DNA of 64,000 nt from an uncultured delta proteobacterium (GCA_963842085.1 CAWJET010000001.1:1824001-1888000); one strand, 5' to 3'; positions 45,927 to 64,000 are shown, counted from the first letter of the stretch. The notes: generated from the sequence alone by a model not told the origin. Numbers and translations: made by a program.

Positions 45927-46333
45927 ACGAACAGCGCGCCCGAGAGCAACACGGCGTCCAGCGCAAGCTCCACCCACATTCGCGGCCGCGACGGAGCGCC
46001 GAGGCCGAAGCATCCGCAGTCGAGCGTGAGGCCTCGAAGCAGCGCGGACGACAAGGCCGCTAAGAACATCACGGAGATGACCGCAACCGCGAGCGCTCCG
46101 ATGCGTCTGGTCGGTGGGGCGAACAGCAAGAGGCCGCATGCGATCTCGAATGGCGGCAGACCCAGCGCCAGCAGGTTGATGAGCACCGCGGGCAGGATCG
46201 CGAACGCCGCGATGCTGTCCGCGAACTGCAGCGGGTCGCGGATCTTGTCGACACCCGCGTAAATGAAGACGGCAGCCACGGCGATGCTGACCGCGAGCAC
46301 CGCGTAGCGGCGCGAATTGTCGGAGGACATCAT
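45884..46333 (-). CDS. MauE/DoxX family membrane protein
   Basis: FIYAGVDKIRDP..FA, RGLTLDCGCFG; about four TM helices. Confidence 0.9.
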   Translation of the reverse strand: MMSSDNSRRYAVLAVSIAVAAVFIYAGVDKIRDPLQFADSIAAFAILPAVLINLLALGLPPFEIACGLLLFAPPTRRIGALAVAVISVMFLAALSSALLRGLTLDCGCFGLGAPSRPRMWVELALDAVLLSGALFVYLRSISRLVFASR

Positions 46334-46923
46334 CGTCCGCTCCCTGTGGATGCCGGCAGCCTGGCCGCCGACCACGCATCCCAGCCGCCAGTGAAGACGC
46401 TGACGTTGCTGAAGCCGAGACTCAGCAACGCGTTCGCCACGAGGCGGCTGTCATGACAGTCGCCGCCGGAGCAGTACACAATGATCGGCTTGTCATGGGC
46501 GGCCTGCAACACGCCGGCCAGGCGCCGATAGTCTTGCGCGAAATCGTCTCGCGCGAGGTTCAACGCGCCCGGCACGTGTCCATTTTCGAAGAACACCGAC
46601 GGCCGGGCATCAAGGATGAGTGCGCTCTTGCGGTCGACGGCTGAACGGAATTCATCAAGTGTGACAGTTGCCGCGGGCGCGATCTTGAAAGGCGGCGCCG
46701 CGACCAGAGTCGTCAGCTCGGCATCGAAGCGCTGTTCAGGCGTTTGGTAGACCATAGGAAGTGGCGCGGCCGAAAAACGGTTCATCGCGAGCCCGGTGGC
46801 CAAAGCCGCTATAGCGAGCAGGGCGACGCTAACGAGGTCGCGCAGAATCTGCGATCTGAGACTCCTCGCTGGAGGCAGGTGCGACGGCTTGTTGGTGACA
46901 ATCGATGACACTGCTGAAGTCAT
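46330..46923 (-). CDS. Membrane-anchored rhodanese-like domain protein
   Basis: TM helix, LDARP..F..GHVPGALNL, IIVYCSGGDCHDS, GGWDAW. Confidence 0.9.
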   Translation of the reverse strand: MTSAVSSIVTNKPSHLPPARSLRSQILRDLVSVALLAIAALATGLAMNRFSAAPLPMVYQTPEQRFDAELTTLVAAPPFKIAPAATVTLDEFRSAVDRKSALILDARPSVFFENGHVPGALNLARDDFAQDYRRLAGVLQAAHDKPIIVYCSGGDCHDSRLVANALLSLGFSNVSVFTGGWDAWSAARLPASTGSGR

Positions 46924-46987
46924 ATCAGCCGATCGGCGCTCCTGAGCGTGCCTGTCAGATCGCGTTGCCATTACGCTCGAACCTGAA

Positions 46988-48400
46988 CTAGCGCCAGGCC
47001 GGGGGATCGCTGCCCAGCGGCGCAGGCGAGAGATCCCATCGAGGCGGCGTTTCCGACATCCGCGCGATCGGCCCCAGCCGCGACAGTCGGCCCCAAGCGC
47101 TATCCATCTCAATCATCCAGGGAGCAATCGACGCCGAGTCGAATCCTCCGGGCTTGGCATCGGGCGCGGTGCGCGGCAACGACATGATCCACATCGATGT
47201 GCGCGCGAGCGACACGCGAACGTGCCAGGTCCCGCCTTCGGTTGTGCGTCGCGCGAGCGCACACATCACGCCCAGCGCGCCAAGATAGCCCGTCGTGTAG
47301 TCGTTGATCGCGGCGGGTACGAGCGCGGGATGCTCGTCGCCGGCTTGCTCGTGCGCCATGCCGGTGACGGTTTGCGCGAGTTGTTCCCATCCGGGGCGGC
47401 CCGCAAACGGGCCTTCATGTCCGTAGCAGTCGATCGACACGACGATGATGCCGGGGCGCACCCGCGCCAATTCTTCCGGCGCAAAGCCGCGCCGCGCGAG
47501 AGCGCCGGGCCGGTACCCTTGCGAGAACACGTGCGCATCGCGGACCAGCGCGCGCAGTTGCTCGACGTCTTCTTTGTGGTCGAGGTCGAGATAGCACGAA
47601 CGCTTGCCGGGATTCGTGTCGATGACGAAGGGCTCGATTGACGGCAGTTTGGGACTTCGCACGTGCAGCACGTCGGCGCCGTGCTCCGCCAGGGTCCGCG
47701 CGCAGGTCGGTCCAGCCAGCACGCGCGTAAGGTCGAGAACGCGCACACCCCAGAGCGGCCGTGCACCGCGCTCATCGGCGCGAGGTCCGGGCAGCAGCTC
47801 AGGAGGTGCGTCGCCGAGGCGAAGGATCTCGACGACGGGCACCCGCGCAAGCGCGATCCCTTGCGGATGAACGCGCCACTCGTCGGCGCTGCGGAGCTTC
47901 GCGCCGCATACGCCGCGCTCTGCGAGCGTATCTTCGAGCACTTGCGCATCCCACGTCGCGACCGCCTTGGCGAGCGCGCTCGCGTCATCGTCGCATCGCA
48001 AAAGTGCAAGCGTGCCTTCGCGCGAACGGAATCCGCCATGCAGATGAACCCATCGCCCGCCACGGGCTTGATAGAGCGCGGTCGTCGGCTGCGCTCGCCG
48101 CTCGAACGAGGCGCCTTGATACCTCAAGTATGCGAACGACACGAGCGACGCGGCAGCGGCGCGCACGTCCACTTCGATCCGCTGCGGACGGCCGCCGCGC
48201 GTGCACCACAAGTCGGCGGCGGCGGTCGCATTCGCGGCAAGAACCGCGGCGGCAGCCTCGCCGGCGCGAAATCGCGTTGCGATTACCGGATCGCTTCCGG
48301 TGATGTGAAGCGCGTGCCGATTCGAAGTATCCGCGCATCCGAGCGAAGCAAGCAGATCGCGGATCCACCCCACCGGTTCCATCGCTGAAGAGGTCGCCAC
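46988..48400 (-). CDS. Class III CoA-transferase (CaiB/BaiF, extended N-terminus)
   Basis: PLWGVRVLDLTRVLAGP...GADVL, GKRSCYLDL, INDYTTG. Confidence 0.9.
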   Translation of the reverse strand: MATSSAMEPVGWIRDLLASLGCADTSNRHALHITGSDPVIATRFRAGEAAAAVLAANATAAADLWCTRGGRPQRIEVDVRAAAASLVSFAYLRYQGASFERRAQPTTALYQARGGRWVHLHGGFRSREGTLALLRCDDDASALAKAVATWDAQVLEDTLAERGVCGAKLRSADEWRVHPQGIALARVPVVEILRLGDAPPELLPGPRADERGARPLWGVRVLDLTRVLAGPTCARTLAEHGADVLHVRSPKLPSIEPFVIDTNPGKRSCYLDLDHKEDVEQLRALVRDAHVFSQGYRPGALARRGFAPEELARVRPGIIVVSIDCYGHEGPFAGRPGWEQLAQTVTGMAHEQAGDEHPALVPAAINDYTTGYLGALGVMCALARRTTEGGTWHVRVSLARTSMWIMSLPRTAPDAKPGGFDSASIAPWMIEMDSAWGRLSRLGPIARMSETPPRWDLSPAPLGSDPPAWR

Positions 48401-61845: not shown

Positions 61846-62499
61846 ATGGGTGACGTTGCGCTTTCGTTCGACAATGGCCCCGATCCCGCCGTGACGCCGG
61901 TGGTGCTCGACGTGCTCGCGCACCGCGGCGTGAAGGCGTCGTTCTTCGTCCTCGGAAAAAATCTCGCGATGCCGGAGCGGATGAAACTCGCCCAGCGCGC
62001 GGCGGCCGAGGGGCATCGAATCGGCAATCATTCGTACACGCATCGCATACCACTAGGCGACGACCCCGCTGCGGATGCCGTCGATTCGGAAATCGCAAAA
62101 ACCGAGCGGCTGATCGGCGCGCTCGCCGAAACGCCGAAACTGTTTCGTCCGTTCGGCGGCGGCGGCAAGATTGGGCCGCATCTGCTGAGCCGCGCCGCGG
62201 CCGATCACCTGGTCGCCAATCGTTACACCTGCGTGCTCTGGAATTGCGTGCCCGAGGATTGGATCGATCAGGACGCGTGGGTCGAGCGCGCGCTTCGCGA
62301 CGTCTCGACGCGGCCGCATACGCTGGTCGTGATGCACGACATCCTGCTGCGCGCGATGAGCCATCTCGATCGCTTCATCGGCGCGCTCGAGGACGCTGGA
62401 CATCGCATGACGCGCGAGTTTCCCGCCGAATGCGTGCCGATCGAGCGCGGCCAGATCGTCCGCGATATTTCGGGAATCGTGTCTTGCGCGCGCGTTTGA
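61846..62499 (+). CDS. Polysaccharide deacetylase (NodB/CE4) family
   Basis: LSFDNGP, IGNHSYTH, LFRPFGG, VMHD. Confidence 0.9.
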   Translation: MGDVALSFDNGPDPAVTPVVLDVLAHRGVKASFFVLGKNLAMPERMKLAQRAAAEGHRIGNHSYTHRIPLGDDPAADAVDSEIAKTERLIGALAETPKLFRPFGGGGKIGPHLLSRAAADHLVANRYTCVLWNCVPEDWIDQDAWVERALRDVSTRPHTLVVMHDILLRAMSHLDRFIGALEDAGHRMTREFPAECVPIERGQIVRDISGIVSCARV

Positions 62500-62511
62500 T
62501 AGCCTGACGAC

Positions 62512-63018
62512 ATGGGCACGCATTCTCGCGAAATTTTCCGAGCGCGCCGCTCAATCGTATTTGCGATTGCCGGTGCGATCGCTTTGTCGCTGACCGCGCC
62601 GGGGTTCGCGTTCGACATCGGGGCGCTGCTCAACAACAAGCCAAAAGAGCCGGACAAGTTCGCGATCATCCGCGTCGAACAGCTTGCTTCGCTGATGGCC
62701 GATCCGAATTCGCACGTCAACATCTATGACGCGAACGGATGGGGCCTGCGTTCGACGGCCGGCGTGATTCCCGGCGCGCATCTTCTCACCAGCGACGACA
62801 AGTACAACGTGGCGAAAGAGTTGCCCCCCAACAAAAGCGCGAAGCTGGTCTTCTACTGCGCCGACCTGCATTGAACCGCGTCGCATGAAGCCGCCCGGCG
62901 GGCGGCAGCAGCGGGTTATACCGATGTGAGCGTGATGAGCGACGGCATCCAGGGCTGGAAGCACGCCGGCAAGCCGGTCAATTATCCAAGTCTTGACGGC
63001 AACACGAAGACCGACTGA
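62512..63018 (+). CDS. Exported rhodanese-domain protein, probable selenoprotein (TGA at 62872-62874 read as Sec; 168 aa)
   Basis: Signal peptide and GVIPGAHLL. The frame continues through the TGA as LVFYCADLH-U-TASHEAARRAAAAGYTDVSVMSDGIQGWKHAGKPV, completing the rhodanese fold; next stop at 63016-63018. Confidence 0.85.
62875..62917 (+). promoter_or_regulatory. Putative bacterial SECIS element
   Basis: Stem GCCGCCC (62890-62896) pairs with GGGCGGC (62900-62906); the G-starting loop GGC begins 22 nt after the UGA; possible lower stem CCGC/GCGG. Confidence 0.7.
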
Positions 63019-63069
63019 TCTGAGCTACTCTCTCGCGCCCGCCATCGCGCGATGACATATAGTGTCGGC

Positions 63070-64000
63070 GTGCAGCGCGACATTCCAATTCCAGAGCCGT
63101 CGACTGCGCCGCTGCGTGAACTGACGCGTCGCAGTATCGTGCTTGGCATCGCACTGGCGCTGATCCTCGGCGCGGCGAACGCCTACCTCGGCCTGTACGC
63201 GGGCCTGACCGTCTCCGCGAGCATCCCGGCTGCCGTCATCTCGATGGCGATTCTGCGGATTCTTGGCGGCTCGACGATTCTCGAAAACAACGTGGTGCAA
63301 ACGATCGCGTCGGCAGGCGAAGCGGTTGCAGCCGGCGCGATTTTCACGTTCCCGGCGCTGGTAATCCTTGGCGGCGTCAGGACGCTGCCGTACGTCGAAG
63401 TGACGGCGCTATGCGTCGTCGGCGCGACGATGGGCTCGTTGCTGGTGGTGTTCTTGCGCCGTGCGTACGTCGTCGAGGAGCGCCTGCCGTTTCCCGAAGG
63501 GGTCGCGTGCGCGGAGGTGCTTCGGGCCGGTGACGCGCAGGCGAATGTTCGTCCGTTGGTAGTAGGCGGTTTGATCTCGGCGGCTCTCAAAGCGCTTCAG
63601 GACGTCGCCGGAATTATTCCCGGCGCCGTCTCAGGCGCGCGATGGGTCGGAAGCGCCGCGATCGCCGGGTCGCTTGATATTTCGGCGGCGCTGCTCGGCG
63701 TCGGTTACATAATCGGAATCAGGATCGCGGCGCTGGTATTCGCAGGCGGCGCATTCGCCTGGCTGGTCGCGATTCCGGTACTAACGGCGTCACATCCCGC
63801 ATACGGAACGGGCGACGCCGGCACGACCGCGTCGCAACTGTGGAGCACCCAGGTGCGCTATCTCGGGGTCGGCGCGATGCTCACGGGCGGGGTCGTGACA
63901 CTATGGCGGCTGCGCACGCGCATCGCCTCCGCAATCGCCGAGAGCATCCGGATCGTGCGCTCGGCGCACGCCGTCGCCACGGCGCGCGAGGACACCGATC
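63070..64000 (+). CDS. OPT family oligopeptide transporter (partial, runs off the window)
   Basis: Manual translation: LRELTRRSIVLG...AANAYLGLYAGLTVSASIPAAVISMAIL...ENNVVQTIASAGE...LPFPEGVACAEVL. Confidence 0.93.
   Translation, partial: MQRDIPIPEPSTAPLRELTRRSIVLGIALALILGAANAYLGLYAGLTVSASIPAAVISMAILRILGGSTILENNVVQTIASAGEAVAAGAIFTFPALVILGGVRTLPYVEVTALCVVGATMGSLLVVFLRRAYVVEERLPFPEGVACAEVLRAGDAQANVRPLVVGGLISAALKALQDVAGIIPGAVSGARWVGSAAIAGSLDISAALLGVGYIIGIRIAALVFAGGAFAWLVAIPVLTASHPAYGTGDAGTTASQLWSTQVRYLGVGAMLTGGVVTLWRLRTRIASAIAESIRIVRSAHAVATAREDTD

Follow-up and report, generated by a model that had tools for sequence, protein, structure and literature searches.

A predicted rhodanese selenoprotein with a Cys-x4-Sec active-site loop and a probable signal peptide in an uncultured delta proteobacterium

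Rhodanese selenoproteins have been known since 2005 (PMC1088965; PMC1976440). Five rhodanese forms were distinguished in a 2026 catalogue of selenoproteins (PMC13188914), where form 1 carries the motif UxxS (WP_010941598.1), forms 2 and 4 carry UxxG, form 3 carries CxU (NF041203), and form 5 carries UxxxxU (TsoB, NF045694, a rhodanese/DsbD fusion), U being selenocysteine (Sec). A gene with another arrangement, Cys-x4-Sec, is described here at positions 62512-63018 of a stretch of 64,000 nucleotides (the window) from an uncultured delta proteobacterium (GCA_963842085.1, CAWJET010000001.1:1824001-1888000). Judged by comparative genomics, it is very probably a genuine selenoprotein gene, in which UGA-121 would be decoded as Sec and which has been mis-called as truncated. 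The fuller description, that is, an exported single-domain rhodanese selenoprotein with hairpin-directed insertion of Sec121 and a Cys-Sec redox couple, is also considered likely, with somewhat less assurance.

Under translation table 11 the frame started with ATG at 62512 and stopped at TGA 62872-62874, giving an open reading frame of 120 aa (62512-62874, plus strand) with the end ...LVFYCADLH. Past this TGA the same frame continued for 47 further codons (TASHEAARRAAAAGYTDVSVMSDGIQGWKHAGKPVNYPSLDGNTKTD) to a second TGA (63016-63018), so that the read-through product has 168 aa. The Pfam model PF00581 (Rhodanese) matched residues 56-151 of the read-through protein with 40.6 bits against a cut-off of 22.2 (E 3.7e-10), and therefore the rhodanese domain crosses the TGA; all 27 of the 27 members of an alignment of the family (A1) matched the same model. 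A stop in the middle of the domain, with the frame open for 47 more codons, had been noticed in the original prediction, and both frame and domain confirmed it.

The read-through protein reached no cut-off in NCBIfam release 20. The best match was TsoB (NF045694), whose profile positions 96-160 were aligned with residues 96-160 at 44.4 bits against a cut-off of 805. By the table of the catalogue, TsoB shares two chalcogen residues four apart in the rhodanese loop, and its second U would fall in the same column as Sec121; however, TsoB is listed there with two Sec and a DsbD-like membrane part, whereas the protein here has one Sec, with Cys first, and stands alone with no membrane domain. The name TsoB occurred in the literature searched only in PMC13188914. 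The LYCAU type (NF041203, form 3) likewise has one rhodanese domain, with the canonical Cys retained and an additional Sec close to it, but it gave 33.5 bits against a cut-off of 115, and its Sec is found at +2 (CxU) instead of +5. Forms 2 and 4 (UxxG), from the Sargasso Sea and Olavius symbiont studies, have the same fold and the same decoding mechanism, but in them Sec replaces the catalytic Cys, which stays in the present protein with Sec added second. The local U-T-A-S fits the label of form 1 (UxxS, WP_010941598.1), with which the comparison was by motif label alone.

The string CxxxxU occurred 0 times in the main text of the catalogue, the supplementary tables of which may list the family, and the literature searched held nothing specific on a C-x4-U rhodanese or on selenoproteins of the lineage of this bacterium. 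Because no NCBIfam model matched and C-x4-U was not listed as a motif in the catalogue, the exported C-x4-U rhodanese, linked to a gene of an OPT-family oligopeptide transporter, was rated as probably a new form (Cys kept, Sec added at +5), set apart from form 1 by the motif label only. If form 1 were the same family, the gene would be a further member of form 1 and not a new form.

The codon in question was followed through relatives in two surveys, which overlap in species and are not independent. The first was a six-frame search of the genomes of 60 relatives, with a strong match defined as E <= 1e-30 and the gene itself counted; it gave 34 strong matches, 29 with an in-frame TGA and 5 with none. 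In the 31 gene copies of this survey, spread over 30 loci, a single column was occupied by TGA (26), TGC (4) or TGT (1), and it sits in the motif F-Y-C-x4-[U/C]-x-A-S-H-E-A-A. The second survey took one genome per species (GTDB set) and covered 80 named public loci, nearly all from metagenome-assembled genomes labelled Candidatus Binatus, Binataceae or 'delta proteobacterium', with a few loci labelled Myxococcota and one labelled Bdellovibrionota. The motif was present in all 80, and their 84 copies comprised 62 TGA, 17 TGC and 5 TGT; the first pattern had counted 81 copies in 77 loci, and the three loci it missed were also TGA forms. In the second survey TGA was retained down to about 46% identity, and in both Cys was the sole alternative at the column. 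The expectation that homologs carry Cys or TGA at this place was thus borne out, with 26 TGA to 5 TGY among the 31 copies and 62 to 22 among the 84.

A maximum-likelihood tree of 79 unique sequences, made with the variable residue masked, required 11 changes between Sec and Cys, of which at least 6 were forced by branches with good support. Repeated switching of this kind is what a real selenoprotein family usually shows. At four loci (L069, L082, L108 and L115) a Sec and a Cys paralog lay in tandem, and the paired paralogs, sometimes in tandem, amount to a natural test of what a rhodanese active site gains from selenium. In alignment A1, which leaves out two copies from unpublished genomes (L018 of G023 and L035 of G018, on neither of which any conclusion rests), the 47 codons after the TGA were among the best conserved of the protein. 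The invariant residues there include A123-A128, G135, Y136, V139-M142, D144-I146 and G148-W149; U-x-A-S occurred in all 27 rows, with A123 and S124 invariant. Cys116 was likewise invariant in A1, and the C-x4-[C/U] pair was invariant across the family. When the A1 profile was run against 1.84 billion representative proteins, 3,415 matches were obtained (814 at 1e-10, 73 at 1e-30). Among the best 150 of these, C-x4-C was present in 141, 7 ended exactly at +5, and 2 were of other kinds; the 7 are read from their ends as truncated calls of Sec forms. Some Cys-form relatives have 247-308 aa and two rhodanese domains in tandem, with two stretches matched (L117:1048-1788, plus strand; P0125, P0127 and P0133).

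Downstream of the in-frame TGA, a hairpin could be formed by GCCGCCC (62890-62896) and GGGCGGC (62900-62906) around the loop GGC (62897-62899). The original prediction had put a 7-bp GC hairpin 22 nt after the TGA; the hairpin stood, and the distance had to be re-read, 22 nt being that to the loop, with the stem starting at 15 nt. As given in PMC13188914, the model of a bacterial selenocysteine insertion sequence (bSECIS) has an apical loop of 3-9 nt with G in its first two positions, mostly as G[G|U], an upper stem of 4-16 bp, a distance of 16-37 nt from UGA to loop, and a minimum free energy (MFE) of at most -7.5 kcal/mol. With a loop of 3 nt (GGC), a stem of 7 bp, a spacing of 22 nt and an MFE of -15.7 kcal/mol, the hairpin lies within all of these limits. 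In the whole genome, 77 of the 134,776 TGA trinucleotides had, 16-26 nt further on, a stem of at least 6 bp capped by a G[G/T]C triloop; 17 of the 77 were in open frames, including this gene and three other likely real selenoprotein genes. Hairpins of like kind with a G-G-C loop were also present in other TGA genes of the genome, namely selD and the rhodanese gene with its TGA at C2:241425.

Conservation of the hairpin was compared between TGA and Cys forms on the unique 48-mers after the codon, where the register was counted as kept with at least 5 contiguous pairs in the same register. It was kept in 55 of 56 TGA-form 48-mers, with all 7 pairs in 35, against 4 of 23 from Cys forms; within the subset that encodes the same peptide, AARRA, the counts were 54 of 55 against 4 of 14. 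The loops of the register-keeping TGA forms were GGC (38), GTC (16), GGA (1) and GTA (1), which fits the G[G|U] rule. In 59 TGA forms the codon entropy at the four-fold or six-fold degenerate codons Ala+6, Ala+7, Arg+9 and Ala+10 was 0.29, 0.12, 0.21 and 0.00 bits, against 1.48, 1.55, 1.84 and 1.24 bits for the same four codons in 22 Cys forms; the other invariant Ala/Gly columns of the TGA forms (+2, +13, +14, +24 and +27) had 1.4-1.8 bits. Arg+8 of the TGA forms was written CGG or CGT only, bar one AGG; the base that varies, G or U, is the second one of the loop. The rare stem changes in TGA forms were one-sided and led to G-U pairs. The contrast of register and synonymous sites between the two forms therefore points to selection on RNA structure only where the codon is TGA, so that the proposed insertion signal, besides falling within the published bSECIS limits, appears to be under selection in TGA forms and in no others. 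A lineage-specific consensus, a stem with a G-G/U-C triloop 17-22 nt past UGA, could serve as a probe for the remaining selenoproteome.

A codon preference was seen directly before the UGA (62869-62871 and orthologs), where 49 of the 50 TGA-form copies with His used CAT (entropy 0.14 bits). Cys forms mostly had Gln before the column, with both codons in use. This use of CAT may reflect a codon context favoured in Sec insertion.

The genes needed for Sec decoding, which the original prediction had left to be looked for, were all present in the host genome (4.93 Mb, 2 contigs, 100% complete): SelA (510 bits), SelB (SelB-wing_3, 69.9 bits, in a 661-aa frame), SelD (379.7 bits, its gene having one TGA of its own), and a tRNA-Sec with anticodon tca at C1:2126874-2126969, 26 kb from selD/selB. 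Among the 60 relatives, 27 other genomes had a TGA form, and SelA was detected in 26 of these, all but G020, which is 64% complete. Seven genomes of the same genus gave no SelA match, of which four (G002, G005, G008 and G014) were also without a rhodanese ortholog, two (G010 and G018) carry the Cys form, and the seventh is G020. The selD gene (C1:2099530-2100754, minus strand; L002, L003) adjoins selB and contains an in-frame TGA (...CKAAGU AGKLGP...), followed by GGUCC-GGC-GGACC.

Sequence reads and public annotation were also considered. DNA contigs of run X1, which may be the source sample, and of run X7 covered 62400-63150 with 0 and 1 differences (in X7, at 62534), none of them at the TGA. 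Contigs of the metatranscriptome libraries X14 and X16 bridged the TGA and were 85-99% alike, and for that reason they were assigned to relatives; among the rows listed, 62848-62905 had no difference and the flanks were full of them. Because a sequence can turn up in an RNA library without having been transcribed, these contigs are weak evidence, and since they are small shares and come from relatives, expression of 62512-63018 is not shown by those libraries. In a word-indexed search of 5.8 billion proteins, the top of the list was held by about a dozen full-length Cys forms (152-168 aa, PF00581), and most of the 120 best entries (about 100) had roughly 106-154 aa, 63-71% of the query. The short entries were unnamed or called 'hypothetical protein', with a few 'rhodanese-related sulfurtransferase', and two NCBI entries were labelled Candidatus Binatus sp. 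Since the best database entries are thus mostly short calls ending at the Sec codon, the prediction that the gene would be annotated as truncated was upheld by about 100 public entries. This amounts to a systematic annotation error, in which fragments end at the Sec codon and no NCBIfam model would rescue them.

Were the TGA a true stop, the gene would be a pseudogene or a 120-residue fragment and the 47 codons would be untranslated remnants, as table 11 reads it and as dozens of public calls of 106-154 aa agree; yet these codons are among the best conserved in A1, the domain would lose its last helices and strand, and TGA alternates with Cys down to about 46% identity, so this reading is very unlikely. 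A private nonsense mutation, which had been named as a possible refutation, is at odds with a TGA that recurs in 62 of the 84 copies from public loci. Another refutation named at that time was a sequencing error; read in this way, or as an error of assembly, the TGA would stand for TGC or TGT, and one base change would give the Cys of 22 relatives, but the TGA was unchanged in the DNA contigs of X1 and X7 and in 62 independently assembled copies, and a hairpin frozen in TGA forms and not in Cys forms speaks against it as well; such an error is effectively refuted and retains next to no probability. It could also be supposed that the UGA is read through without Sec, by near-cognate Trp or Cys or by local recoding without SelB, as the residue at 121 is predicted from the genes. 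The chance of this is slight, because Cys is the sole alternative at the column, the hairpin fits a SelB-type bSECIS model, TGA forms are confined to SelA-positive genomes bar the incomplete G020, and TGA is also the ordinary stop of the same gene.

Several points weigh against Sec decoding. The 70-nt fold was unexceptional for DNA of 61% GC (z -1.12, with 29 of 200 shuffles equally stable), a scan of the whole window with Rfam at gathering thresholds gave no match, the AARRA peptide under the hairpin is itself conserved and the Cys forms make up a smaller and in part more remote set, and Sec at 121 is a prediction from genes and genomes. Because the hairpin overlies AARRA, its conservation is partly protein-driven, a point which the synonymous-site contrast addresses. 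Sec decoding was accepted on the comparative evidence, which was decisive, and not on the fold of the single sequence.

The AlphaFold2 model made with A1 showed a confident domain at about residues 50-160 (10-residue block-mean pLDDT 74-94) and a low-confidence N-terminal helix (7-27). The loop C116-A-D-L-H-U121 lies between strand 111-115 and helix 122-133. Foldseek returned rhodanese domains only, the top matches with probability 1.00, and these included 3tp9, 6mxv, 2hhg, Sud (1qxn), YgaP and persulfide dioxygenase fusions. By HMMER alignment to E. coli YgaP, Cys116 was placed on Cys63, the residue mutated in PDB entry 5hbq ('C63D'), and U121, sixth in the loop, on Arg68. Sud of Wolinella (1qxn) and YgaP of E. 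coli (2moi/5hbl) thus share the fold and the position of the catalytic Cys, but they have 13-25% identity and a single Cys, the Sec/Cys column being taken by Arg or some other residue. A sequence search of the PDB gave one-Cys rhodaneses only and no solved C-x4-C relative. The structure entry of Sud is titled polysulfide-sulfur transferase, and Sud is a periplasmic protein.

The N-terminus has a basic n-region, RARRSIV, of twin-arginine-like type, then a hydrophobic core and a likely signal-peptidase site (G-F-A | F-D). On these features the protein would be exported and cleaved after Ala33, and a signal of the twin-arginine translocation (Tat) type or of the general Sec type is equally possible. 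Against export by the twin-arginine motif it has to be counted that RR-x-hydrophobic was present in 21 of the 27 A1 rows and missing in 6, and that the Pfam TAT_signal model found no match at E<=5. If the export holds, an extracytoplasmic Cys-x4-Sec rhodanese is added to the short list of exported bacterial selenoproteins.

The following mechanism is proposed. SelB with Sec-tRNA(Sec) would be recruited by the mRNA hairpin 62890-62906, with its GGC loop 22 nt past the UGA, and the ribosome would then put in Sec at UGA 121 instead of terminating. After removal of the signal peptide behind Ala33, the rhodanese domain would lie outside the cytoplasm. Cys116 would carry sulfane sulfur as a persulfide, as in other rhodaneses, and Sec121, five residues on at the mouth of the same loop, would act as its redox partner: the selenolate would attack the sulfane sulfur (or selenium) on Cys116, or Cys116 itself, and an intraloop selenenylsulfide would be formed. 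This could be re-reduced by a periplasmic reductant; at another site the genome has a gene for a three-domain DsbD. In sum, the enzyme would reduce or transfer chalcogen of the persulfide or polysulfide type on small thiols or peptides, and the product might be fed to the OPT permease encoded downstream. This chemistry is suggested by the invariant C-x4-[C/U] pair, the TsoB-like best NCBIfam match, the DsbD in the genome and the downstream OPT gene in most loci. The catalytic role is the weakest part of the proposal and is put forward tentatively, at somewhat less than even chances.

A role without sulfur transfer is also conceivable, though rather unlikely. The protein would then be a periplasmic thiol/selenol-disulfide oxidoreductase, in which Sec121 attacks oxidised or disulfide substrates, Cys116 resolves and DsbD reduces. 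The loop A-D-L-H has no basic residue, unlike that of thiosulfate-binding rhodaneses, and DsbD is encoded in the genome. Most catalogued bacterial selenoproteins are described as thiol oxidoreductase-like (PMC9312934; PMC1976440), and the nearest model, TsoB, is described in the catalogue as a rhodanese/DsbD fusion. However, the catalytic Cys stands at the persulfide position of rhodaneses, and the loop has the six-residue length of sulfurtransferases. The two chemistries overlap, since persulfide reduction needs both.

Table 1. Predicted features of the rhodanese selenoprotein locus, with positions in the window
Feature	Position	Strand	Basis
Predicted selenoprotein coding sequence, 168 codons, UGA-121 read as Sec, true stop TGA 63016-63018	62512..63018	+	Frame, hidden Markov model, orthologs
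Predicted signal peptide, residues 1-33	62512..62610	+	Read from sequence and A1
Rhodanese homology domain, residues 56-151	62677..62964	+	PF00581, AlphaFold2, Foldseek
TGC, Cys116, canonical rhodanese catalytic position, first residue of active-site loop	62857..62859	+	Invariant in A1; alignment to YgaP Cys63
In-frame TGA, predicted Sec121, last of six-residue loop C-A-D-L-H-U, before helix 122-133	62872..62874	+	Orthologs, AlphaFold2, YgaP alignment
SECIS-like hairpin within coding region, 7-bp GC stem, GGC triloop	62890..62906	+	Published bSECIS criteria, register, codon entropy
OPT-family oligopeptide transporter gene, leaves the window at its end	63052..64000	+	TIGR00733

The OPT gene (TIGR00733, 283 bits against a cut-off of 182.5) starts 33 nt past the stop of the selenoprotein gene, and no terminator-like site was found between the two. 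An OPT gene lay downstream on the same strand in 56 of the 80 loci, with rhodanese identity falling to about 47% among them; of the upstream genes, that for a metallo-beta-lactamase (MBL)-fold protein was retained in only 32 loci and that for a deacetylase in only 30. Several results stand against a link between the rhodanese and the transporter. OPT was not adjacent in 24 of the 80 loci, and 51 open reading frames scanned at 22 of these 24 revealed no common neighbour theme, the neighbours being acyl-CoA dehydrogenase/MaoC, DFP, an efflux pump, proteases, regulators and one SBP56-like gene (L120). OPT was also present in 36 of 36 genomes of the same genus, including 8 without a rhodanese ortholog. 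Strict co-occurrence is ruled out by these 8 genomes, and in terms of gene content the functional tie is loose and not obligatory. The literature searched held nothing on a rhodanese-OPT pair. As a single case, the SBP56-like gene (L120:3477-4895, minus strand), which matches the 56-kDa selenium-binding protein with E 9.6e-13, is the neighbour, on the opposite strand, of a distant Sec-form rhodanese.

The exported C-x4-U rhodanese and OPT might form a chalcogen-scavenging module in the periplasm, a proposal that is speculative and improbable on present evidence. In such a module the substrates of the enzyme would be sulfane sulfur or selenium bound to glutathione or peptides (persulfides, GS-Se-SG selenotrisulfides), and OPT would import the product. 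If it were true, the selenoprotein would serve to acquire sulfur or selenium, and not in energy metabolism or defence against oxidants, and the C-x4-[C/U] loop would mark a distinct, widespread redox class of rhodaneses.

A second rhodanese is encoded in the window (46330-47112, minus strand, 260 aa), and it has an all-Cys version of the loop, YCSGGDCHDS. As had been claimed for it at the outset, its Cys falls where the present gene has TGA: BLASTP aligned YCSGGDC without gaps on YCADLH[U], with the second Cys on U121. A hydrophobic, membrane-anchor-like stretch precedes the loop, and the protein may be an extracytoplasmic or membrane-tethered C-x4-C relative.

The finding as a whole is solid and would not surprise specialists; its main value lies in the exported C-x4-U architecture, the clean contrast of Sec and Cys forms at the hairpin, and the rich rhodanese selenoproteome of the lineage. 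At least four rhodanese-type selenoproteins are encoded in this genome, and the uncultured soil lineage labelled Binatus/Binataceae appears to invest heavily in them. Three C-x4-U rhodaneses were found, one of them fused to a K+ channel. The fusion (C1:131594-132859, plus strand; L044:1501-2766) has 422 aa, with an N-terminal rhodanese (YCGKFTU, TGA at C1:131837) and, by Pfam, an Ion_trans_2 potassium-channel domain with TSVGYGD. Frames of similar size occurred in relatives with one TGA (for example G015, G007, G004, G009, G033, G001, G026 and G020) or with none (G012, G030 and G006). The fusion looks like a second C-x4-[U/C] family, with a channel possibly gated by a selenoprotein domain.

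The third C-x4-U member (C2:240889-241623, minus strand; L126:190-924) is a 245-aa rhodanese with YCRDSLU, the C-terminal half of which has no Pfam match; its TGA at C2:241425 is followed 20 nt on by an 8-bp stem with a GGC triloop. Another rhodanese of 156 aa (C1:749401-749868, plus strand; L127:402-869) has Sec at the catalytic position, FFUAGGGRS, of the UxxG type, and an 8-bp stem with a G[G/T]C triloop 23 nt past its TGA. A 365-aa AhpC/TSA-Redoxin protein (C1:1724862-1725956, plus strand; L128:363-1457) with a W-U-G-C active site and a hairpin 21 nt past the TGA is probably a peroxiredoxin-like selenoprotein.

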